Shown here: positions 2,397 to 29,780 of the stretch, one piece after another
How positions within the stretch are numbered: the stretch's first letter is position 1
Layout of the letters: each line of letters opens with the position of its first letter
Origin: Thermococcus camini
Lineage (GTDB): Archaea > Methanobacteriota_B > Thermococci > Thermococcales > Thermococcaceae
Direction: 5' to 3'
Assembly: GCF_904067545.1 (NCBI RefSeq)
Contig: NZ_LR881183.1
Coordinates: 406,277 to 438,276, forward strand
Length of the DNA: 32,000 bases
The notes under the pieces: model-generated
Databases searched by the model: none
What the model was told of the DNA's origin: nothing
The model's input: only the letters and a program-made list of their open reading frames with translations
Program-made: the position numbers and the translations under genes

Positions 2397-2480
2397 ATGA
2401 AAAAGCCGAGAATAATGCTTGGAATGCTTTTGATAATATTATTGATGGGTAGTGTGGCTGGGGCCTATCGGTTTTTTTAA
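2397..2480 (+). other. 27-codon signal-peptide/anchor ORF fragment (MKKPRIMLGMLLIILLMGSVAGAYRFF*), out of frame with the downstream 463-codon ORF because of a T7 run
   Basis: ATG 2397 is preceded by GGTGAGG (2383-2389). The peptide has a basic n-region plus a hydrophobic core, typical of a signal peptide. It stops at TAA 2478-2480 inside the run gTTTTTTTaa (T7 = 2472-2478). Removing one T reads ...AYRFFNKPEKGLLIEL..., straight into ORF 2452..3843. Confidence 0.6.
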
Positions 2481-3843
2481 CAAGCCAGAAAAGGGTCTAC
2501 TAATTGAACTCCCAAATCCAGACCGGACAATGGGCAGGAGCGCGCTTGCCAGCTGGCTGGCCCCTAAGTACCGGTACTACGTCCAGGTCCAGGTAATGAC
2601 ACGGGAAGGTTTCAGAACCGTTTACCTGGGAAGTTCTCCGGGAAAAGTGCTCATTCCCAGTTCAAATCTCTCCGAAATCAAACGCTCCTGGAAAGACGTG
2701 AATCCAGCGGTTCTCATTGACGTATGGATTGTTGAACCCGAAACCGGGAAAACGTACGAGGTCGGGACGTTTAGCATAAGGCTTACTGAGAACTCGATCG
2801 AGGGCCTTCAGAGGTTCACTCCCAAATTCTCAAAGGGTGACCTCCACGATTTTTCGGTGGGTGGATTAGAGAGAACCTCCCCAATTACGCCCACTAGAGG
2901 ATTTTTTGCAGGTTATCGCTGGAGAACGAAGAGAGAATACCTTCGGGAGGACGACTATCCTGGTGGCATGTATCTTCCGGTTCTTATACTTGACAACGGG
3001 GAGGGACACGCCACAGTTCTTGGAGCTTACAAGGTTGAGGTCAGGGAGAGCTCATCCACTTCTTCTGGGCTTTCCATCGGTTTCTCGACCACGATAATCA
3101 GAGGGGCCCAACTGAGTAGTAAGGGCAAGTTCAGTATCAAAAGGGGTTTGGAGAACGGGGAGATACGGATTGAACTGAAAAAGGGCAATGAGTTTGTTAG
3201 GTCTATCATTGATGGTGAAGTAAAGAACGTCAAACCCGGCGATGTGGGAGTTATGGCTATAAAAGGAGAGCCATACATCGCCCTTCAGGTTCTCCAGAAG
3301 TGCTACGTTGATGAGTTTAGAAAGATGCACTGTTTTGACACAGACCAAGAGAGGGTGCTTATAACGGTTTCGGATGTTGAACGAACTTATGACTCCCGCA
3401 AAAAAGCCTACCTCATTAAAACTTTCTCCTTCGTGAACCCTCCAAGGAGCGTGTATCCTGCGGATAGCTTTGAGAGACTTGTCGATGACAACGCGAAGAT
3501 GGAGACACTAACAACACTCTACGGGGAAAAGCAGAACGGGAGATCTTCTCACATGGAGATTTTCCTGGACGAGTACGATACCTACTCAAACTCATACATC
3601 CCACTGCTCGCGGTGACCGTTGCCCTCCAGCCTGAGGCATGGCCGGCATTTTTGATAGGCTTAAGTGCAGTTGGGGGGATTTACATAACGAACGAGGGGC
3701 ATGAAAGGGCATTTGGGGCCTTTACGATTATGGATCAATCGGACTACACCAAGACCACCGTTAAGTACGCGAGTCTTGAGTATTCGGTGAAAGATTCCAA
3801 CCATCACACAAGGTTTCCCTTTGCATATCTGCGGTTTGAGTAG
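2452..3843 (+). CDS. Hypothetical protein (probable secreted or membrane-anchored protein; N-terminus likely supplied by the 2397 ORF fragment)
   Basis: 463-codon ORF from the track with no family I can recognise. It has Ser/Thr-rich stretches and a hydrophobic segment near the C-terminus (IPLLAVTVALQPEAWPAFLIGLSAVGGIYI). It is A/T-richer than the flanking genes. The track start (GTG 2452) has no SD of its own. Confidence 0.6.
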   Translation: MWLGPIGFFNKPEKGLLIELPNPDRTMGRSALASWLAPKYRYYVQVQVMTREGFRTVYLGSSPGKVLIPSSNLSEIKRSWKDVNPAVLIDVWIVEPETGKTYEVGTFSIRLTENSIEGLQRFTPKFSKGDLHDFSVGGLERTSPITPTRGFFAGYRWRTKREYLREDDYPGGMYLPVLILDNGEGHATVLGAYKVEVRESSSTSSGLSIGFSTTIIRGAQLSSKGKFSIKRGLENGEIRIELKKGNEFVRSIIDGEVKNVKPGDVGVMAIKGEPYIALQVLQKCYVDEFRKMHCFDTDQERVLITVSDVERTYDSRKKAYLIKTFSFVNPPRSVYPADSFERLVDDNAKMETLTTLYGEKQNGRSSHMEIFLDEYDTYSNSYIPLLAVTVALQPEAWPAFLIGLSAVGGIYITNEGHERAFGAFTIMDQSDYTKTTVKYASLEYSVKDSNHHTRFPFAYLRFE

Positions 3844-3944: not shown

Positions 3945-4095
3945 AGGCTTAGCTGTCATTGAGATTACTTCAGATGCCGATAACCCCTGAAGGGGTAACG
4001 GCCGAAGACCCGGCCCTCGGGCTGATGTCCGAAACCGGCGACGGGAGTAGGAAAAGCCCGTAAACCGATGCACTCGGAGGTCAGGCTCATTTGGA
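3945..4095 (+). ncRNA. GC-rich structured ~150-nt 5' leader of rpl10e, or an independent small RNA (unclassified)
   Basis: It lies between the predicted start site (~3948) and the rpl10e SD (GGAGGTGA 4092-4099). It has no coding potential on the + strand. Local hairpins include ccg-a-ta-a-cccc/UGAA/ggggtaacgg (3978-4002), acggg/11-nt loop/cccgt (4041-4061) and agctaag/tttagg/cttagct (3935-3954). No C/D or H/ACA boxes were found. Confidence 0.3.
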
Positions 4096-4104
4096 GGTGA
4101 GAGT

Positions 4105-4653
4105 ATGGGACTGAGACCAGCCAAGATTGATAGGGACGTTGACAAGCCCGCTTACACGAGGAGGAAGTACATCCGCGGTGCGCCCGGTCCGAGAATAACG
4201 ATCTTTGATATGGGCAACCTCTCAGCCGAGTTCGAGTACGAGGTCAGCCTTCACGCGGAGCAGGCCATGCAGATAAGGCAGAACGCCCTCGAGGCCATCC
4301 GTATCCAGGTGAACAGGTACCTCCAGAAGAACGTCGGAAGGAGCAACTACCACTTCAAGATAAGGGTTTACCCGTTCCAGGTTCTCAGGGAAAACCCGAT
4401 GGCAACCGGAAGGAAGGCCGACCGTTACGGAAATGGTATGAGGAGGCCCTTTGGAAAGCCGATTGGTTTAGCTGCCCGCGTCAAGAAGGACCAGAAGATC
4501 ATCACTGTCTGGGTGAATGAGAACCACCTCAAGTTCGCCCTTGGAGCGATGCACAGGGCCAAGATGAAGCTGCCCTACAGCGCCTACTACAGGATCTACG
4601 ACAAGGAAGGCAACGACATCACCAGCAAGGTTCTCTCGACCATGAAGCGCTGA
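4105..4653 (+). CDS. rpl10e: 50S ribosomal protein L10e (uL16)
   Basis: [38 protein letters not shown]... is the typical archaeal L10e/uL16 N-terminus. GGAGGTGA SD lies 5 nt upstream. T-rich tracts follow the stop. Confidence 0.95.
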
Positions 4654-5269: not shown

Positions 5270-6415
5270 ATGATGGTAAGCTCAGGCTTTAGGGCAACCC
5301 TCCTCAAGCTCGGTCTGCCAGAGGACAGGCTGGCGGTTCTTGAGGGCAAGGGTGGAGTTGTGGAGGGGGAATTCAAGGGCATAAGATACGTCCGCTTTCG
5401 GGATTCCGCCAAAGGGTTCCGGCGCGGAACGGTTGTATTTGAGAACGGCGATGTTGTTCTGGGCTTCCCCCACATAAAGCGTATCGTCCAGCTGGAGAAG
5501 GGGGTAAAAAGGATCTTCAAAAACAGACCCTTCTACGTTGAGGAGAAGGTGGACGGCTACAACGTCCGCGTCGTGAAGGTGATGGACAGGGTTCTCGCTC
5601 TAACGAGGGGCGGCTTTATCTGTCCCTTCACGACGGAGAGGATACTGGACTTCATCAACGATGAGTTCTTCAAAGATTACCCCAACCTTGTCCTGGCCGG
5701 TGAGATGGCCGGGCCCGAAAGCCCGTACATCGTCGAGGGGCCGCCCTACGTGAAGGAGGACATAGAGTTCTTCCTCTTTGACATCCAGGAGAAGGGAACG
5801 GGAAGGAGCCTTCCTGTGGAGGAGAGGCTTAAGCTTGCCGAGGAGTACGGCATTCGTCACGTTGAAACTTTTGGCCTCTACGACCGCTCGAAGATTGAGG
5901 AGTTGCATGAGTTAATCGAAAGGCTGGGCAGGGAGAGGAGAGAGGGCATCGTTATGAAAACGCCCGATATGAAGAAAATCGCGAAGTATGTAACGCCGTA
6001 CGCCAACATCAACGACGTCAGGATAGGCTCGCACATATTCTTCGACCTGCCCCACGGCTACTTCATGGGGAGAATTAAGCGCCTCGCTTTCTACCTGGCC
6101 GAAAAGCACATCAAAGGCGAGGAGTTCGATGAGTACGCGAAGGCCCTCGGAAAGGCCCTCCTCCGGCCGTTCGTTGAGAGCATCCACGAGGTCGCCAACG
6201 GCGGCGAGGTCGAGGAGGTCTTTACGGTGAGGGTGAAGAGCATAAGCACCGCCCATAAAATGGTGACTCACTTCGAGAGGCTCGGTGTGAAGATCCACAT
6301 CGAGGACATAGAGGATCTGGGCAACGGCTACTGGAGGATAACATTCAAGAGGGTCTATCCCGATGCAACGCGCGAGATGAGGGAGCTGTGGAACGGCAGG
6401 GCGTTTGTGGATTGA
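5270..6415 (+). CDS. ATP-dependent RNA ligase, Pab1020/Rnl3 family (archaeal RNA-circularising ligase)
   Basis: Collinear along its length with my memory of Pyrococcus abyssi Pab1020 (MVSS.F...LGL.E.R...LE.KGG.VE.EF.G.RY.R..DSA...RRGTVVF). Nucleotidyltransferase motif I is EEKVDGYNVR (Lys codon 5546-5548). The C-terminus is ...ELWNGRAFVD. The start is probably the second ATG (5273). Confidence 0.9.
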   Translation: MMVSSGFRATLLKLGLPEDRLAVLEGKGGVVEGEFKGIRYVRFRDSAKGFRRGTVVFENGDVVLGFPHIKRIVQLEKGVKRIFKNRPFYVEEKVDGYNVRVVKVMDRVLALTRGGFICPFTTERILDFINDEFFKDYPNLVLAGEMAGPESPYIVEGPPYVKEDIEFFLFDIQEKGTGRSLPVEERLKLAEEYGIRHVETFGLYDRSKIEELHELIERLGRERREGIVMKTPDMKKIAKYVTPYANINDVRIGSHIFFDLPHGYFMGRIKRLAFYLAEKHIKGEEFDEYAKALGKALLRPFVESIHEVANGGEVEEVFTVRVKSISTAHKMVTHFERLGVKIHIEDIEDLGNGYWRITFKRVYPDATREMRELWNGRAFVD

Positions 6416-6802
6416 AGCGGCAGATTTCATGAAAATTATTCTACCAATTTGGATGGATAAGTAAAATCGGGGGACTTTAACTTGCGCCCCCACAAGTTAC
6501 TTGCACCCCTGCAAGTTAAGAGGCTTTCCCCAACCTTTGCGAAAGCAAAGGTTGATCAAAAAGTCTTCGCCGTTAAAAGGGTATGGAAATGTTTGCATGC
6601 TATTTTAATGATGTGTGTTTTAATGGGTTTGTATCAAATTTCATCGATTTTGGGCGTGTTTTGCTCCAACTCAGCGCCCGAAGGGCGCCAAAAATGAAAA
6701 ACATGAGTAAGAACTGTCAAGATTAAGAATAAACCCGTGTAAAAATTAGGCTCATTTAAATGGCATGCCGTTTTCGATGAAACATTCCCCAGAAAAGTTT
6801 CT

Positions 6803-7139
6803 TAACGTGGGGCAAAGCCCACTTTGGGGGTTTGAGACTGCAGGGAACTTTGCCTGCGCAAAGTTTCATCAAAGTTTGTGATTCCCGTTGGGGCTCTTCT
6901 ACAAAGGGATTTCACTTCCAAACTTGCCCGTAAAAGGTTGAATTCTCTAAGATAAAACTTTTCCCACGTGGGTTCTACTTGAACCGCGCTCCAAAGGGGT
7001 GCAAAAACGCTTGAACCTTCCTGGAACGCATCCTTAGAATGAATTCATTCTGCCCAAAAAGAAGTCCTCAAAGAAATCCACTCCAGAACACGCTTTTCAA
7101 GAGGAATCACAACCTTGATCAAACGTCGCGCAGGCGAAC
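6803..7139 (+). repeat. Repeat unit A (~335 nt, diverged copy)
   Basis: Aligns end to end with unit B. Shared blocks are gtggggc.aagccc.actt.gggggtttgaga, caaagtttgtgatt, gggttctactt.aaccgcgctcc, aaaaacgcttgaacc, tcctt.gaatgaat.c and gaatcac.aaccttgatcaaac.tcgcg. Confidence 0.8.
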
Positions 7140-7432
7140 AAGCTTTTAAAAAAGCTTGACCAAAAAGCCTTAACTGCCTAGAAGCGAGGAGTTAGAAGTT
7201 GGTAGCTCTTCTTGAGGTCATGCTCTGAATACAGGGGGTTTCAAGTCAGGTGCCAATGTTTCAAGTGAGAACCAGTTTTGGGTTCCTTTGATGAGGGTTT
7301 AACTTGAAAAAGACGCCCGCAGGGCATCAAAAAGGCAAACCTAACCCAAGAGTGAATTTTAGGCAAGTTCTTTATGTTGAACGCTCCAGTAATGATAAAC
7401 CCCTTGAAAATCGGCACGTCCAAATGGGGCTA

Positions 7433-7500
7433 CAAATTTTGATGAAACTTTGCGCAAGCAAAGTTTCTGGGGGGTGTGGGGGCGTTAGCCCCCCAGTAGT
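7433..7500 (-). repeat. Partial inverted copy of the 5' module of the repeat unit
   Basis: The reverse complement reads ggggggc-taac-gccccc-acaccccccagaaactttgcttgcgcaaagtttcatcaaaatttg. This matches unit A 6845-6879 (ggaactttgcctgcgcaaagtttcatcaaagtttg) nearly base for base. Confidence 0.65.
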
Positions 7501-7513
7501 TTAGAGGAAAAGC

Positions 7514-7850
7514 GGGGTTGTGGGGCGAAGCCCCACTTCGGGGGTTTGAGAGTACAGAGCAAGCTTTAAGAAAGCTTGACCAAAAGTTTGTGATTTTTTG
7601 AGGTAGTGCCCTTAAAGAGGGATTCATTTCAAAATCAGCCATTAGGAAGTTGGATCCCTCGAACAGATTTTTTCACATGGGTTCTACTTCAACCGCGCTC
7701 CTTCGGAGCGCTAAAAACGCTTGAACCCTTCTGAAAAGTTTCCTTGGAATGAATCCAACACTCACAAGCAAATTCCAGAGAATCCACTTAGGAACACTCA
7801 TTACAGACAGAATCACCAACCTTGATCAAACTTCGCGAAGGCGAAGTTTG
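7514..7850 (+). repeat. Repeat unit B (~335 nt); its first 46 nt are repeated exactly, inverted, at 29735-29780
   Basis: See unit A. It starts with ggggttGTGGGGCgaaGCCCCACttcgggggtttgagagtacagag (7514-7559) and ends with the 10-bp hairpin caaacttcgc-GAAG-gcgaagtttg (7827-7850). Confidence 0.8.
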
Positions 7851-7900
7851 CTTTGCAAAAAATTTGTACACCTCCCAACCCAAAAAAGGGTGGAACGGTT

Positions 7901-7917
7901 CGAAAGCCTTTTAAATA
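7901..7917 (+). promoter_or_regulatory. BRE/TATA promoter (CGAAAGCC-TTTTAAATA) for the SPOUT-rpl3 ribosomal-protein operon
   Basis: TTTTAAATA at 7909-7917 lies ~55 nt upstream of ATG 7973. It is the only strong TATA-like box between the repeats and the first operon gene. Confidence 0.45.
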
Positions 7918-7972
7918 GTCTCCATAGACCCCACTTCAGCGTTAAAGTACCCACAGCAAAGGATGACGGAAA

Positions 7973-8743
7973 ATGGCCTGGCACATCTTCATTCCAGATT
8001 CGCTCCTTGAAGAGACCGACGACCCCAAAATCAGAACGTACAAGGTTGGGCAGATAGCCAGGGCCGCTGCAATCTTCGGCGTTGAGCACGTGTGGGTTTA
8101 CAGGGCCGGCGGCAGGGACGGAAGGTTCATCAAAACGATCCTTGAGTATGCGGAAACGCCCCAGTACCTCAGAAAGAGGCTGTTCCCCCTCATGCCGGAG
8201 CTCCGCTATGTTGGCGTCATCCCGCCGCTGAGGACTCCCCACCACAAGCTTAAGGGGAAACCGAGGGTCGGGGAGATCCGCGAGGGCTTCGCCTTTCGGA
8301 AAGGAAGGAGAACCTACGCGGACATCGGCCTCGACGACCTCGCCGCGGTGGAGGGGGACGTTGAGGGGCGCGCAACTTTCAGAATAGTCTCAGCAAGGCC
8401 TCTCAGAGTGATACCAGCGAAGCCAGAGGAATACTGGGGGTACAGGGTGCATCTCACGAGGAAGTCACTGGCAAAAACACTTAAAAAGGCCAGGCTGGAT
8501 TTGGCGATTGCCACCTCCCGGAGGGGGCGTGACATTCGAGAGGTGAAGCTTCCCCCGCTCGAGGGGGAGGTCGGATTCGCCTTTGGCTCACCGAGGAAGG
8601 GCGTGATGGAGCTCCTCGGCGAGGAGGAATATGACTTTGATCTAATCCTCAACACCATTCCAAATCAGCGGACGGCCACCGTCCGCACCGAGGAGGCCGT
8701 GTTGGCCACACTCGCTGTGTTTAATCTCATAAGGAGGGATTGA
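7973..8743 (+). CDS. Putative SPOUT-superfamily RNA methyltransferase (COG2106/DUF171 family), the usual gene preceding rpl3 in archaea
   Basis: 256 aa starting [43 protein letters not shown]..., with ...[27 protein letters not shown] at the C-terminus (trefoil-knot-like end). Its stop lies 1 nt before the rpl3 ATG. Confidence 0.7.
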
Positions 8744-9798: not shown

Positions 9799-10566
9799 AT
9801 GAAGGTTAAGGTTTTCAATCTCGAAGGCGAGCCTGTGGAGGAGATAGAGCTTCCGAAGGTCTTTGCCACCCCGTTCAGGCCCGACCTCATCAGGAGGGCT
9901 GTCATCGCCTCATGGACCCACAGGATACAGCCGCAGGGCAGGGATCCGCTCGCTGGAAAGAGAAGGGTCACCGAGAACATCGGAAAGGGCCACGGAATGG
10001 CAAGGGTTGAGAGGATAAAGACCTCCCCGAGGTTTGCCGCCTTCGTCCCCTTCGCGAGAGGTGGAAGGAGAACCCACCCGCCCAAGGTCGAGAAGGTCAT
10101 CTGGGAGGACATCAACAAGAAGGAGCGCAGGCTGGCCATAATGAGTGCCATCGCTGCAACCGCCAACTACGACCTCGTCAGGGCCAGGGGCCACATCGTT
10201 GACAACGTTCCGCAGGTTCCGATAGTCGTCACCGACGACCTCGAGAAGGTTTTCAAGACCGCCCAGACCCGGGAGATATTCAAGAAGCTCGGCGTCTGGG
10301 ATGACATCGAGAGGGCCAAGAAGAACACCAAGATAAGGGCCGGTAAGGGCAAGATGCGCGGAAGGAAGTACAAGAAGGCCAAGGGTCCGCTCGTCGTCGT
10401 TGCCAAGAACGAGGGAATCGTTCAGGGTGCCAGGAACCACCCGGGCGTTGACGTCGTCACCGTTGAGAACCTCGGCGTTGAGCTTCTCGCTCCGGGTACC
10501 CACCCGGGAAGGCTCACGGTCTGGACCAAGGGCGCCATAGAGAGGCTTAGGGAAATTTACGGGTGA
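9799..10566 (+). CDS. rpl4: 50S ribosomal protein L4 (uL4)
   Basis: [22 protein letters not shown]...[13 protein letters not shown]...; preceded by TGAGGTGAGATAAATG. Confidence 0.97.
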
Positions 10567-13092: not shown

Positions 13093-13279
13093 GATTAGGG
13101 AGATGAGCATCGAGGAGATCGACAAGAAGCTCAGGGAGCTCCGCCTCGAGCTCGCCAAGGAGAGGGGTGTGCTCACCATGGGGGCCTCCATAGAGAACCC
13201 CATGGTCATCCGCAACCTCAGGCGCGACATAGCGCGCCTGCTTACCATAAAGAAGGAGAAGCTTAGGGAGAAAAGGTGA
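13079..13279 (+). CDS. rpl29: 50S ribosomal protein L29 (uL29)
   Basis: [32 protein letters not shown]...; overlaps the rps3 end by 14 nt. Confidence 0.95.
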
Positions 13280-13285
13280 GGTTCG

Positions 13286-24414: not shown

Positions 24415-27405
24415 TTAATACGTTAAGAAGAACATTTTAATTATAGAGTTCGTATCGATTTTATCATGTTTCATATTCTCGAAGATATTCTTAAGAAGAA
24501 TGGCACGGAGAATTTGGTCGTTTTTCTTATATTCCTTTATTGCTTTATAAATAACAACGGCGAGATCTGGATATGTGAGTTGTAGATAACTTCCTTTATA
24601 TAAATCTTCAATTTTATCTAATGCCATTGATGCGGCAATAAACTCCAAGACTATTTGAAAGTCGTGTTGACTTATTGGGACTGAATCTATAATTTGAAGA
24701 TAGGCTTCTTTGTATTTTCTCTCTAGTATATCCAGTAAAATGTGTATTTCGTTATATACAAAAGGAAATGTATCCCTTAAGATTAACTCTAGTTCTTTTA
24801 TGGAGTTCATAACACTTTTGGATATTTTAATGTTAAGTTTCAGTATCCTGTCTGAATAATATTTGACAAAAATTATCTCAGCAATTAGTGTCATTGTGTT
24901 CTCCGGAGGTAACATTAGTAGATATTCTTTAATTATTGGAGCGAATTCTATAAATTCTTTTACACTTTCATAGTTCAAACCATTTTTTATCACATTTATT
25001 CTCATGGAAAGATCATGCAATAATATCCAGTTTAATACTCTCTTTCCAGATGCGTTAAACTCTTTCTTCGAATATTTTAAAGCTAGAGATACATATTTTC
25101 TCGCTTCTTCGATATTTCCCAGAAACAGGAAAGCGAATGCAAGGGTGTAATAAGTTAGTCTAAAGCTACCAAAGATCCTCAATTCAAGCAATTGTTTTAT
25201 TCTTTTTTGTTTGTCTTCTTTGTTATCCCGTATGAAAACAGTGCTAAAGAGAGCGTTAACATCTTTGTCATTCTGTAGAAGTTCAAAATTGGCCTCTAAT
25301 TCATTTAAAAGTTTTTCAGCGTTCCTTAAAAATTGTATATTCTCTTTGGTAGCTTCACTGGTTAATGGTATAGGTGAGAAGGTAAATATCTCTCCAAGCT
25401 TGAGATACAGCTCCATCTTGGCATATTTATCAAACCATGTATCTCCTAAGATTCTTATGCTCTCTATCACTTGCTCTATTTTTCTGCTCATCATGTGCCT
25501 CTCTTTCTTCAAAAATGGGCTGTAGACCTTCTTTCTTATGGTGTTTACCTTAGTAGCTATTGTAAGAAACCTTACTATGTTATTGTCGGGTAACTCTTTG
25601 GTGAGTTCTCTTAAAATAGTGGAAATTTTATGATCTACTTCCTCAATAACATAGGGATTCAAAGCTGAACTATCACTATATTGCCATAAAAATGACAATA
25701 ATCTTAATTTGTCTTCTTGAGTTAGGGCAGAGACTCCACCTGTTTTTGAGAGTATATTAAATATAGCAATTGTAACTTCATATATGATTGGGGACTGACT
25801 ATTGGCTACTTGGATTCCTGCGTTTATTATCAATGTGAATGTAACTTCAAGTTCATAGTTATCTACTAATTCAAGAATTTTGAGAATACTAATTAATCCG
25901 TTCTCTGAGTATTCTGAAGTACTGTTTATAGCCTCTAGCATAAGATTTACAAACCTTGAAATCTCTGTTCGTATGGCATCATTCCTTATGAGATACGGTA
26001 TGAACGTTCTAAGATGAGAATATAGCTCAGTTAGATCGTATATCTCATCAACAATTTGTCTATCATGATCATTTAGTGAACCAACATATACATAGCCGTT
26101 AAGATGTACGATATCCTCGCTAAATATAAGATCTGTTAATTTATTTTTGCCCTGATCCCCATAAACTAGTCTCCCCAATATTTCTAGGATTGATTTTTCA
26201 AGAGGAGTCAGTAAAAGGGGTATTACTAGTTTGTTTCTCTTACTAAGCTCTTTATATATGAACTCGTTTGACTTAATCAGTCCCTTAAGATTATACATAA
26301 TCTGGTCCTGATTTTTGGATGCAACATCTAAGGGGTAATACACCCGATCTGCTTGAGGAAGGTTATCAAGGAGGTCATCAATGTTTACTTTGAGATTAGT
26401 GGATACTTTTGCGAGCATAACAGCAAACCCCGGGAGTCCCGAAGTAAGTGCTTTTAATTTTTCGCCATAGTTCGGATCTATATTAATTCCATTTGAGTGG
26501 ATAATATCTAAGAATTTTTTGCTATCAATAATCGGGCCGATGAATATGACTTGTTCCGAACTTTCAATGAGAGTGTGTTCACTAAGAATGCTTCTTACAT
26601 ACTCAGGAGAATTTAGGGTAAATTGTTTTCCCTCATTTGCTAACTTTTCTATGGGAATTCTGTTAACTATAATTACCCTACTTCCTAGATTTGAGAGTTC
26701 AGTAATTAATTTGGATAGCACATTTCGCTCGGATAGAGAGTAGTCCATATAGTCGTCGATTAAAAACACAAATTTTGAAGCTTTAGATTTTACTTTTGAA
26801 TCCTTGTAGGAGGTATATAGTTCTCTGCCTGTCTTCCATATGTTTCCTATTGCCGATATTCCTTCAAAAATTGTCATTCCAATTACTATAGACTGAGTTA
26901 TATCCAGGATTTTATCAAATGGCTCTTTCTCTATAATGGACTTTAGCTTAATTGAGATGTGCTGAAGATTCACGCCTCTTATCCCGATTATCTCTAGCAG
27001 AGTTTTTATTGAGTTGTCAACTGTGTTGACGTATTCCTCTATGTTTGAAACATTAGAGATGATATCCGTAATTTTTTCTAGAATTCCTTGAGAAGTGGCA
27101 GCCTCTACAACCTGCAAGACAAGAGACCTTTCGCTCTCAGAGATCATCTTGATTGGAACTAACGGCATGTAAAATGGATTTCCATGGTTATCAACAATCT
27201 TCTTTAATTGAGGTTGGGCAGAATAATGTCTGGGAGACAATATTATAGGTATATACCCTTCTTCTCTTGCCATTTTCATGGCTATATATCGTGCCAGAGT
27301 ACTCTTGCCACTTCCAGGTAATCCGAGTATCATGACTGGGTTTCCTTCTTTTAGTTGTTTCAGGATGTGTTCCTCTTTCCCAGTAACCACGTATCGTTGC
27401 ATCAT
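24415..27405 (-). CDS. 996-aa NB-ARC-like STAND P-loop NTPase with a long C-terminal helical (TPR-like) region; strongly AT-rich
   Basis: Motifs occur in NB-ARC order: Walker A GLPGSGKST (res 28-36, nt 27298-27324), Walker B FVFLIDDY (res 212-219, nt 26749-26772), GSRVIIVNR (res 241-249), VIFIGPIIDSKKFLDII, and SGLPGFAVMLA (res 322-332, GLPLA-like). About 650 aa of helical repeat-like sequence follows (e.g. YYTLAFAFLFLGNIEEARKYVSLALKY). Codons are overwhelmingly A/T-ending, unlike all neighbouring genes. Confidence 0.8.
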   Translation of the reverse strand: MMQRYVVTGKEEHILKQLKEGNPVMILGLPGSGKSTLARYIAMKMAREEGYIPIILSPRHYSAQPQLKKIVDNHGNPFYMPLVPIKMISESERSLVLQVVEAATSQGILEKITDIISNVSNIEEYVNTVDNSIKTLLEIIGIRGVNLQHISIKLKSIIEKEPFDKILDITQSIVIGMTIFEGISAIGNIWKTGRELYTSYKDSKVKSKASKFVFLIDDYMDYSLSERNVLSKLITELSNLGSRVIIVNRIPIEKLANEGKQFTLNSPEYVRSILSEHTLIESSEQVIFIGPIIDSKKFLDIIHSNGINIDPNYGEKLKALTSGLPGFAVMLAKVSTNLKVNIDDLLDNLPQADRVYYPLDVASKNQDQIMYNLKGLIKSNEFIYKELSKRNKLVIPLLLTPLEKSILEILGRLVYGDQGKNKLTDLIFSEDIVHLNGYVYVGSLNDHDRQIVDEIYDLTELYSHLRTFIPYLIRNDAIRTEISRFVNLMLEAINSTSEYSENGLISILKILELVDNYELEVTFTLIINAGIQVANSQSPIIYEVTIAIFNILSKTGGVSALTQEDKLRLLSFLWQYSDSSALNPYVIEEVDHKISTILRELTKELPDNNIVRFLTIATKVNTIRKKVYSPFLKKERHMMSRKIEQVIESIRILGDTWFDKYAKMELYLKLGEIFTFSPIPLTSEATKENIQFLRNAEKLLNELEANFELLQNDKDVNALFSTVFIRDNKEDKQKRIKQLLELRIFGSFRLTYYTLAFAFLFLGNIEEARKYVSLALKYSKKEFNASGKRVLNWILLHDLSMRINVIKNGLNYESVKEFIEFAPIIKEYLLMLPPENTMTLIAEIIFVKYYSDRILKLNIKISKSVMNSIKELELILRDTFPFVYNEIHILLDILERKYKEAYLQIIDSVPISQHDFQIVLEFIAASMALDKIEDLYKGSYLQLTYPDLAVVIYKAIKEYKKNDQILRAILLKNIFENMKHDKIDTNSIIKMFFLTY

Positions 27406-29704: not shown

Positions 29705-29713
29705 CGAAAGACA

Positions 29714-29728
29714 GGGGGGCTCCGCCCC
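29714..29728 (+). terminator. GC hairpin GGGGGC-TCC-GCCCCC followed by a pyrimidine tract, 10 nt after the cbf5 stop (possible terminator or RNA-processing element)
   Basis: Perfect 6-bp G/C stem seen directly. Oligo-T tracts follow further downstream (T6 at 29818-29823, then T-rich to ~29870). Confidence 0.3.
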
Positions 29729-29734
29729 CTTATC

Positions 29735-29780
29735 TCTCTGTACTCTCAAACCCCCGAAGTGGGGCTTCGCCCCACAACCC
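29735..29780 (-). repeat. Exact 46-nt inverted copy of the repeat-unit core (partner 7514-7559)
   Basis: ctctgtactctcaaacccccgaagtggggcttcgccccacaacccc is the reverse complement of 7514-7559, 46/46 by hand comparison. It contains the hairpin GTGGGGC-TTC-GCCCCAC (29758-29774). Confidence 0.9.

Follow-up and report, generated by a model that had tools for sequence, protein, structure and literature searches.

Fold-back modules in mosaic arrays behind gene 3′ ends of Thermococcus, tentatively read as non-autonomous DNA elements

INTRODUCTION

Repetitive extragenic palindromic (REP) sequences and bacterial interspersed mosaic elements (BIMEs), together with the REP doublets forming hairpins (REPINs) of E. 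coli and Pseudomonas, are extragenic palindromes that are combined with short motifs into mosaic arrays. They are located at operon ends and in convergent intergenic regions, strains differ in how many they carry, and structure is kept better than sequence. The same features characterize a family of non-coding modules described here, which we analyzed starting from a gene-free spacer (6416–7972, 1557 nt) in a 32,000-nt stretch of Thermococcus camini DNA (NZ_LR881183.1, positions 406,277–438,276; hereafter, this whole stretch is the window). The modules fold back on themselves, stand in arrays directly behind gene 3′ ends and keep their hairpins while the hairpin sequence changes; tentatively, we read them as lineage-specific, non-autonomous DNA elements. 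To our knowledge, REP/BIME-type interspersed mosaic repeats have been described in bacteria rather than archaea.

Like REP/BIME, the modules are imperfect palindromes at extragenic 3′ positions, mixed with other motifs in mosaics. However, REP sequences are 20–40 nt and REPINs ∼100 nt in size, whereas the modules are 270–310 bp; they also differ from REP/BIME in the possession of a central hairpin, differentiated ends and G-rich leaders, and in their archaeal host. No gene of the REP-associated tyrosine transposase (RAYT) type, the companion of the 20–40-nt REP sequences, was present in the Pfam tables of the flanking genes.

MITEs (miniature inverted-repeat transposable elements), such as the Correia elements of Neisseria and SM1–4 of Sulfolobus, are short intergenic sequences without coding capacity that are present in multiple copies and show terminal inverted repeats and insertion polymorphism. 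The modules agree with this description; they are shorter than ∼500 bp, non-coding and bounded by terminal inverted repeats, and 37 of them are dispersed over ∼13 sites. Different from MITEs, they have no clear target-site duplication and no cognate insertion sequence (IS); an autonomous IS with the same ends was found neither in the loci nor in plasmid, phage and viral collections. In addition, the termini are themselves palindromes, the module body is constrained throughout, and module placement is strongly biased toward tRNA and C/D small RNA (sRNA) genes, at their 3′ ends.

Hairpin-defined ends that are recognized as single-stranded DNA, without duplication on insertion, are known from the IS200/IS605-derived palindrome-associated transposable elements (PATEs) and from TnpB omega-RNA loci. 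IS200/IS605 ends are not inverted repeats, whereas the module ends are. PATEs have subterminal hairpins without terminal inverted repeats and insert 3′ of a fixed 4–5-nt target; the motif TTGAT of the modules is internal to the module and no flanking target. Unlike at TnpB loci, a TnpB gene stands near an array in one locus only (L120), at a distance of 1.3 kb. Thermococcales themselves have repeated, structured intergenic sequences, of which sRkB/sRkC and sRk48/52 of Pyrococcus abyssi are TnpB-associated RNAs (PMC3124441); a link to them was rejected, the published sRk48/52 alignment showing no similarity to the modules (PMC3124441).

Integron attC sites and clusters of attC sites lacking integron integrases (CALINs) likewise involve cassette arrays that are bounded by imperfect palindromes, keep fold rather than sequence, and vary in content between strains. 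The module cassettes, in contrast, are non-coding, fixed in size and interrelated, and their arrays are short (1–4) and dispersed; the module boundary consensus TTGAT[G/C]AAAC...GTTT[C/G] does not contain the RYYYAAC/GTTRRRY boxes, and no integrase occurs among the neighbours. Rolling-circle replicons (pC194/phiX174 type; in Thermococcales, pGT5/pTN1) have single-strand origins and nick sites that are also fold-back regions, 200–300 nt in size, with conserved structure, whereas the modules are chromosomal, multi-copy and unaccompanied by a Rep gene.

Searches of the literature on MITEs and repeats in Thermococcales yielded no description of such modules, and the family is apparently undescribed. 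It would provide a handle on intergenic DNA turnover in hyperthermophiles, on how Thermococcales end their tRNA and sRNA transcription units and, possibly, on a new mobilization mechanism. Short-read assemblies break at the repeats, which can also be confused with RNA genes; in a public short-read Logan assembly, a contig ends at window position 7530, within the leader module X described below.

RESULTS

The two repeat units are composites of separable modules

The source genus of the window is Thermococcus; its SPOUT methylase (gene at 7973–8743) is 99% identical to the counterpart of Thermococcus sp. 18S1. The spacer is located between a Pab1020-type RNA ligase gene (5270–6415) and the methylase gene, which is followed by the L3 ribosomal-protein operon. 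Its GC content is 0.45–0.48, compared to 0.52–0.59 in the flanking genes.

A first-pass annotation had described two ∼335-nt units in the spacer, A and B, which share single-stranded blocks and carry exchanged hairpins at homologous positions. The repeat is real. In a BLASTN comparison of the spacer with the window, A (6807–7138) and B (7520–7845) aligned end to end with 70.6% identity over 340 columns (E 2e-30), and the conserved blocks listed earlier are present. The hairpins were also correctly reported: the left hairpin is aactttgc/gcaaagtt in A and caagcttt/aaagcttg in B; the central stem gcgctcc/ggggtgc of A includes two G·T pairs, whereas that of B is fully Watson–Crick; and the terminal hairpin, a 10-bp stem in B, is decayed in A. 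The shared blocks, however, are not single-stranded. BLASTN shows the 5′ block (6846–6884) as the reverse complement of the 3′ blocks (7103–7138 and 7810–7848), so the blocks are mutually complementary arms; caaagtttgtgatt complements gaatcac.aaccttgat, as gggttc does gaaccc.

Each unit is a composite, consisting of the G-rich leader X and the ∼295-nt body Y1. X occurs without Y1 at 29.7 kb of the window, and Y1 without X at locus L002 (loci other than the window are numbered in this way); since the two occur apart, the ∼335-nt unit is not one entity. The 29.7-kb copy had been cited as a further case of a swapped stem. Its homology to the spacer comprises the 46-nt X only, on the minus strand (7514–7559 is identical to 29781–29736 at 46/46 positions, E 2e-18), and the gggggc/gccccc hairpin belongs to a non-homologous short module, V. 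The spacer contains seven modules in the order Z0-X-YA-Z1-W-X-YB. These and the two modules at 29.7 kb are as follows.

6531–6801, plus strand: module Z0, with left hairpin 6531–6554, central GC hairpin 6672–6689 and degenerate right end 6771–6801; Z profile E 8e-55; orthologous Z modules in L003, L006 and L004
6806–6844, plus strand: degenerate copy of leader X (CGTGGGGCAAAG-CCCACTTTGGGGGTTTGAGA...), with 85% identity to X at 29.7 kb; its position matches that of X in 16 metagenome loci
6845–7139, plus strand: Y1 copy A, with left hairpin 6845–6867, 5′ arm 6868–6884, GGGTTC...GAACC pair 6970–7018, central hairpin 6986–7002 (two G·T), 3′ arm 7104–7124 and decayed right hairpin 7125–7139; Y profile E 2e-56 on the plus and 1e-30 on the minus strand (hit 6849–7138); 76–77% identical to the L002 copy adjoining tRNA-Cys
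7139–7467, plus strand: module Z1, with left hairpin 7139–7158, decayed central hairpin 7312–7328 and right end 7437–7467; Z profile E 5e-42; near-identical copy at the same locus of T. atlanticus (L033 9560–9888)
7469–7494, plus strand: module W, a G-rich hairpin GGGGGGTGTGGGGGCGTTAGCCCCCC akin to the 5′ half of X; also present in L003, L008, L015 and L024–L029, where it stands upstream of X or a Z module
7514–7559, plus strand: leader X, intact, with hairpin GTGGGGC GAA GCCCCAC; exact-pattern matches in 16 Thermococcus metagenome loci
7560–7850, plus strand: Y1 copy B, with left hairpin 7560–7578, 5′ arm 7579–7595, central hairpin 7695–7711 (cUUCGg loop), 3′ arm 7810–7831 and right hairpin 7827–7850; Y profile E 2e-55 on the plus and 2e-22 on the minus strand
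29705–29735, minus strand: short module V (CGAAAGACA-GGGGGGCTCCGCCCCC-TTATCT on the plus strand), beginning right after the cbf5 stop codon; the X-V pair recurs abutting tRNA-Arg, tRNA-Gln or sR36 in L010, L028, L030 and L015
29736–29781, minus strand: leader X, third copy, 100% identical over 46 nt, pointing to the 3′ end of cbf5 (gene assigned by Pfam)

A protein-coding repeat was rejected on the grounds of 1-nt indels within conserved blocks and the lack of a conserved open reading frame (ORF). By eye, the defining motifs of replication-origin boxes, CRISPR, C/D or H/ACA boxes, tRNA-like fragments and att remnants are absent from the units.

A module family with a common fold-back architecture

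Loci were collected from an exact-pattern genome scan, a metagenome scan for X, and the neighbourhoods of methylase and Cbf5 orthologues. The resulting set comprises 37 modules of four related subfamilies (Y1, Y2, Z and T3), from 21 Thermococcus loci at ∼13 distinct sites. The core of Y1 had a single exact-pattern match among 185,579 species genomes; this match, L002, is a Thermococcus metagenome-assembled genome in which the Y1 copy lies directly beside tRNA-Cys. The metagenome scan for X gave 24 loci, 16 of them Thermococcus contigs with X in the same setting. The profile hidden Markov model of each subfamily matches the other subfamilies, and within 317 kb of locus sequence the matches are confined to such arrays. 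The profiles also match the same modules on the opposite strand, which reflects terminal inverted repeats and a dyad symmetry of the whole module; the two halves are ∼58% complementary (mean z 2.5).

Across subfamilies, identity is below 50% and the fold-back architecture is kept. The modules are 286–309 nt in length in Y and mostly ∼266–282 nt in Z and T3, with outliers that give an overall range of 234–329; their GC content is 40–47%. The left end is formed by the palindrome [C/G]AAGC...GCTT[G/C], which is followed by ACCAAAAG (A[C/T]CAAA(A)G) and the 5′ arm. The middle consists of GGGTT[T/C], a central GC hairpin with a 3–4-nt loop, and [A/G]AACCC; then come the 3′ arm and the right end, C(T)TTG[A/G]T with the palindrome [G/C]AAAC...GTTT[C/G]. 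The 5′ and 3′ arms are mutually complementary in all 37 modules, and over ∼40 nt the left end is the reverse complement of the right end. The ends are differentiated, TTGGT being paired with AAGC stems and TTGAT with AAAC stems. The closing stem is GTGATTC/GAATCAC in Y1 and GTAGCTC/GAGCTAC in Y2; GTGGCTC/GAGCCAC is also found. Several motifs are invariant beyond pairing, namely TTGAT[G/C]AAAC, GGGTTTA/TAAACCC and, in Z, GCATGC. The modules are preceded by the G-rich hairpin leaders X and W.

Additional hairpins are nested in, or inserted into, the right-end hairpin of a module at L019 1495–1560 and L033 9495–9560, for example ACTTTCGC[A CAGCCTTTAAGAAAGGCTG]GCGAAAAG, an arrangement suggestive of insertions in hairpin loops.

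Structure is kept while sequence changes

That structure is maintained while its sequence is replaced was proposed in the first-pass annotation, and it held up in the enlarged copy set. In 20 Y copies, 89.7% of the positions of the closing stem and of GGGTT[T/C]/[A/G]AACCC are paired in register, compared to 31–53% when the two sides are slid. The Y closing arms contain 30 double-change cells, and none of 500 shuffles reached as high a count. Compensatory changes are also seen in the terminal hairpins: among 33 distinct ones, stem pair 1 is divided between C-G (14) and G-C (15), pair 4 between A-T (23) and G-C (4), and pair 9 between G-C (24) and T-A (8); pair 8 also switches its Watson–Crick type. 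Between closely related copies, differences amount to 3.9% in the central hairpin, 17% in the arms, 18% in the terminal hairpins and 25% in the rest.

The RNAalifold consensus contains only the closing stem, the central hairpin and a short three-pair local stem (16 pairs, −13.7 kcal/mol). Relative to shuffles, the folds have z values of −3 to −6 at 37 °C, similar on both strands; at 85 °C, the predicted energies are only −5 to −20 kcal/mol, and hardly anything beyond the GC hairpins and a few short stems is expected to persist. Helices with compensatory change (closing stem, GGGTT[T/C]/[A/G]AACCC, terminal and central hairpins) would characterize an RNA gene; such change is equally expected from DNA hairpins or co-evolving inverted repeats.

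The conserved pairing does not mark a strand

The two G·T pairs in the central stem of copy A had been taken as the mark of an RNA transcribed from the plus strand. We used a hairpin detection that scored G·T and A·C alike. In 100 distinct hairpins with 903 stem pairs, there are 7 G·T and 6 A·C, besides 7 G·G, 7 T·T, 6 C·C and 5 A·A; the long-range helices contain 23 G·T and 30 A·C. With 30 G·T against 36 A·C overall, the wobble argument is not supported, and wobble asymmetry was discarded as a strand indicator because it is neutral. The long-range A·C are concentrated in two columns, due to a systematic difference between left and right ends (ACC versus GAT) and not to wobble. The recurrent conserved mismatches are C·C (Z left hairpin) and G·G (T3 right hairpin), which can be read as wobble on neither strand. 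Copy A, in which the two quoted G·T pairs lie, is decaying elsewhere, with the right hairpin lost and a deletion in the leader hairpin; L002, its closest relative, has a perfect central stem.

T runs such as T6 act as intrinsic terminators in archaea. In the 37 modules, there are 29 runs of five or more T (T5+) in forward and 54 in reverse orientation. The Y1 subfamily, to which A and B belong, has 17 forward T5+ runs, and copy B carries two T6 runs on the plus strand. An RNA gene would tolerate G-U but not A-C and keep one strand free of terminators; neither is the case here. Central loops of the cUUCGg type number nine on the forward strand and five on the other strand. In gathering mode, an Rfam search of the whole window and 15 loci returned only tRNAs and C/D sRNAs, the modules having no match to a curated family; in E-value mode, 6300–8100 gave noise only. 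This is consistent with the earlier statement that no described RNA family has this architecture. Upstream of X, inspection by eye showed no conserved BRE/TATA element (transcription factor B recognition element and TATA box).

Arrays abut gene 3′ ends

Oriented by X, the arrays follow the grammar gene 3′ end - (module)n - (W)(W2) - X - (module or V) - convergent gene 3′ end. The first hairpin starts 2–6 nt past the CCA end of a tRNA gene, 0–1 nt past a stop codon or just past a D box; such abutment of 0–6 nt was found in more than 20 junctions. Where a tRNA is adjacent, the right palindrome faces it in every case. Ten of ∼13 distinct sites flank a tRNA or C/D sRNA gene, classes of genes that account for only a few per cent of a Thermococcus genome. 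Such a hairpin is missing from most tRNA genes at these loci, as well as from all other genes of the 32-kb window. TA or TAA is frequent at the junction, on the gene side only. No clear direct repeat distinguished filled from empty sites, apart from this gene-side TA/TAA; the TA, being consistent on one side only, was not taken as a target-site duplication.

C/D sRNA genes end 1–6 nt before a Z left hairpin at L015 ∼13210–13280, L031 ∼9970–10030 and L018 934–991, all on the minus strand. Of these, sR47 was called by Rfam; the two uncalled ones have clear C, D′, C′ and D boxes. On the opposite side of the same C/D sRNA arrays, sR36 adjoins V or T3.

Strains differ by gain, loss and exchange of modules

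Upstream of the SPOUT methylase gene, there is one Z in L006 and Z-W-Z-X-Y1 in Thermococcus sp. 18S1, compared to Z0-X-YA-Z1-W-X-YB in the window, despite 93–99% identity of the flanking proteins. T. atlanticus carries Y1-Z1 at this locus, T. barophilus a remnant, and Thermococcus sp. P6 none; in L004, L005 and L007, an ATPase gene is added. Between the same X and the same tRNA-Gln, there is Y2 in L025 and V in L028; beside tRNA-Cys, there is Y1 in L002 and T3 in L018. Seven states were found in the 3′ flank of cbf5.

Window: V-X
L123: Z-V-X
L122: Z
L022: Y1-X-Y2
L024: T3-Y2-X-Z-W
L120: T3-Y1-X
L121: a solo hairpin after an ordinary T5 terminator

The closest copies occupy non-orthologous sites: the Z of L003 is 90% identical to that of L024 and 87% to that of L028. 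Between the window and 18S1, Z copies at orthologous positions share ∼70–76% identity, compared to 99% for the flanking protein.

A 20-nt palindrome, AACTTGC(G/A)CCCC(C/T)(A/G)CAAGTT, occurs in two tandem copies at window 6479–6516 and is repeated at L004 8427–8469 and 9550–9592 and at L033 9170–9210 (T. atlanticus). In L004, L005, L007 and T. atlanticus, these repeats bracket a 360-aa ‘archaeal ATPase’ gene (PF01637) that is missing from the window and L006, forming a present/absent cassette between palindromic direct repeats. Behind cbf5, a ∼2-kb island of small ORFs of unknown function (window 29705–∼31775) extends to the PF05175 methyltransferase/S13 operon; in L121, cbf5 and this operon are 75 nt apart, and L122 and L123 have related islands. 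In L120, the T3-Y1-X array behind cbf5 is 1.3 kb away from the TnpB gene (OrfB_IS605/Cas12f1-like_TNB; 5385–5959, minus strand), which is truncated at the contig end.

DISCUSSION

The units are members of a family of polar, dyad-symmetric, non-coding fold-back modules in one Thermococcus lineage, which form mosaic arrays in gene 3′ flanks. Hairpins are maintained through compensatory change, the modules are placed at gene ends, and the arrays turn over in a cassette-like manner. From these observations we infer, tentatively, that the modules are non-autonomous DNA elements of the MITE/BIME kind. The terminal ends would be recognized as extruded or single-stranded DNA hairpins beside the invariant TTGAT, and this recognition would keep the stems paired while their sequence drifts. 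Arrays could grow and shrink by insertion beside existing hairpins and by recombination between hairpins. The modules would persist where insertion is harmless, right behind stable-RNA genes and stop codons, and would be passively transcribed where flanking genes read through. Three resemblances serve as leads only: TTGAT is the target of ISDra2; C(C/T)TTGAT resembles CTTGATA, at which rolling-circle Rep proteins nick; and the GCGAAGC of X corresponds to an ultra-stable DNA mini-hairpin.

Several results weigh against such DNA elements. No transposase, recombinase or autonomous partner was found in the 317 kb of loci, and a Y1 transposase (the enzyme class) is absent from the Pfam tables of flanking genes. 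Filled and empty sites show no clear target-site duplication. Plasmid, phage and viral collections contain no module copy: BLASTN of the spacer against plasmids and phages gave nothing, and four scans of viral contigs returned zero or ∼40 chance 16-mers each, none of which fits the module profiles. Copies within one genome are old, A and B being ∼70% identical. The constraint on the whole module (length within ∼5%, 3.9% differences in the central hairpin, the GGGTTTA/TAAACCC pair) exceeds what a simple MITE needs and points to a function of the folded module. A host function at RNA 3′ ends could instead account for the 0–6-nt abutment and for the surplus of neighbouring tRNA and C/D sRNA genes. 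Finally, Z and Y2 are poor in forward T5+ runs (7 versus 32), which would suit forward transcription; Z-X-Y2 arrays may give rise to a forward transcript.

Such a host function is the subject of one alternative, which we consider unlikely: the modules may be cis elements in RNA 3′ trailers, used on either strand, each from its own convergent gene, with hairpins that block 3′ exonucleases or stall or terminate RNA polymerase, as REP/BIME do on bacterial mRNAs, behind strongly expressed tRNA, C/D sRNA and ribosomal-protein genes. The position of the first hairpin at the CCA end, D box or stop codon and the predominance of stable-RNA neighbours argue for it, the dyad symmetry and neutral wobble count fit use of both strands, and the tRNA-side sense strand meets T5+ runs 40–100 nt into the module. 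However, the many tRNA and other genes without a hairpin show that the element is no general requirement, the gene-sense sequence after the hairpin is A-rich and not U-rich, and neither the 250-nt body with its constrained length nor the replacement of one module type by another at a single site is explained. The first-pass model, in which each ∼335-nt unit is a structured non-coding RNA of the plus strand whose hairpins are kept by RNA pairing including G-U, appears very improbable to us. The covarying helices, the better-than-shuffled folding of both strands, the tolerated G·T pairs of copy A, the scarcity of forward T5+ runs in Z and Y2, and the nine forward cUUCGg loops agree with it. In contrast, A·C pairs outnumber G·T pairs, the conserved mismatches are C·C or G·G, cUUCGg loops also occur on the other strand, Y1 has 17 forward T5+ runs, no conserved promoter element was seen upstream of X, Rfam has no match, and the unit is not one entity, X and Y occurring separately. 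The GC content of 40–47% is below that of the flanking genes, and stable RNAs of hyperthermophiles are far more GC-rich. A plus-strand RNA gene is not needed to explain the data.

The invariant motifs, the strand-symmetric conservation and the constrained length would also suit host sites at the DNA level, where palindromes and dyad blocks bind dimeric DNA-binding or chromatin proteins and serve as insulators or roadblocks where highly transcribed genes converge. We regard this as highly doubtful: coordinated half-site changes, such as the switch of pair 1 from C-G to G-C in about half of the copies, are unexpected for a sequence-specific site, and presence, number and type of modules vary freely between close strains. 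There is likewise little probability, in our judgement, that the arrays are scars or end-sequences of larger islands, with junctions left by repeated integration and excision beside tRNA and other genes. The X-V pair of the window does stand at the junction of cbf5 with the ∼2-kb island missing in L121, the spacer upstream of the methylase also hosts the present/absent ATPase cassette, and tRNA genes are classical integration sites; however, neither duplications of tRNA 3′ ends (att repeats) nor integrase fragments were seen, the second island junction has no module, and many arrays are flanked on both sides by RNA genes without any island (L008, L009, L015 and L018). A broader proposal, speculative and rather unlikely, is that the modules represent a new class of archaeal element: a polar ∼300-nt fold-back module with a G-rich leader, active as a folded single strand of DNA or RNA and directed to sites only a few nucleotides from where tRNA, C/D sRNA and some protein genes have their 3′ ends, which could be mobilized by a single-strand (HUH-type) or other enzyme or be released from tRNA or sRNA precursors as a structured trailer RNA that has its own function.

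Other features of the window

Three further features lie elsewhere in the window. A GC-rich stretch of ∼130 nt (∼3955–4085) separates the rpl10e promoter from the start of the gene (rpl10e, 4105–4653). It is missing in Thermococcus sp. 18S1 (L003 7070–7110); its fold z is −1.5, and an Rfam search of it gave no match. Between the major facilitator superfamily (MFS) transporter gene and rpl10e, the window has a 463-aa ORF without a Pfam match (2452–3843), and in 18S1 the two genes adjoin directly. On the minus strand, 24415–27405 encodes a 996-aa protein with an N-terminal STAND/AAA NTPase signature; the gene lies in an island of 34–41% GC, is probably foreign and is possibly a defence gene.

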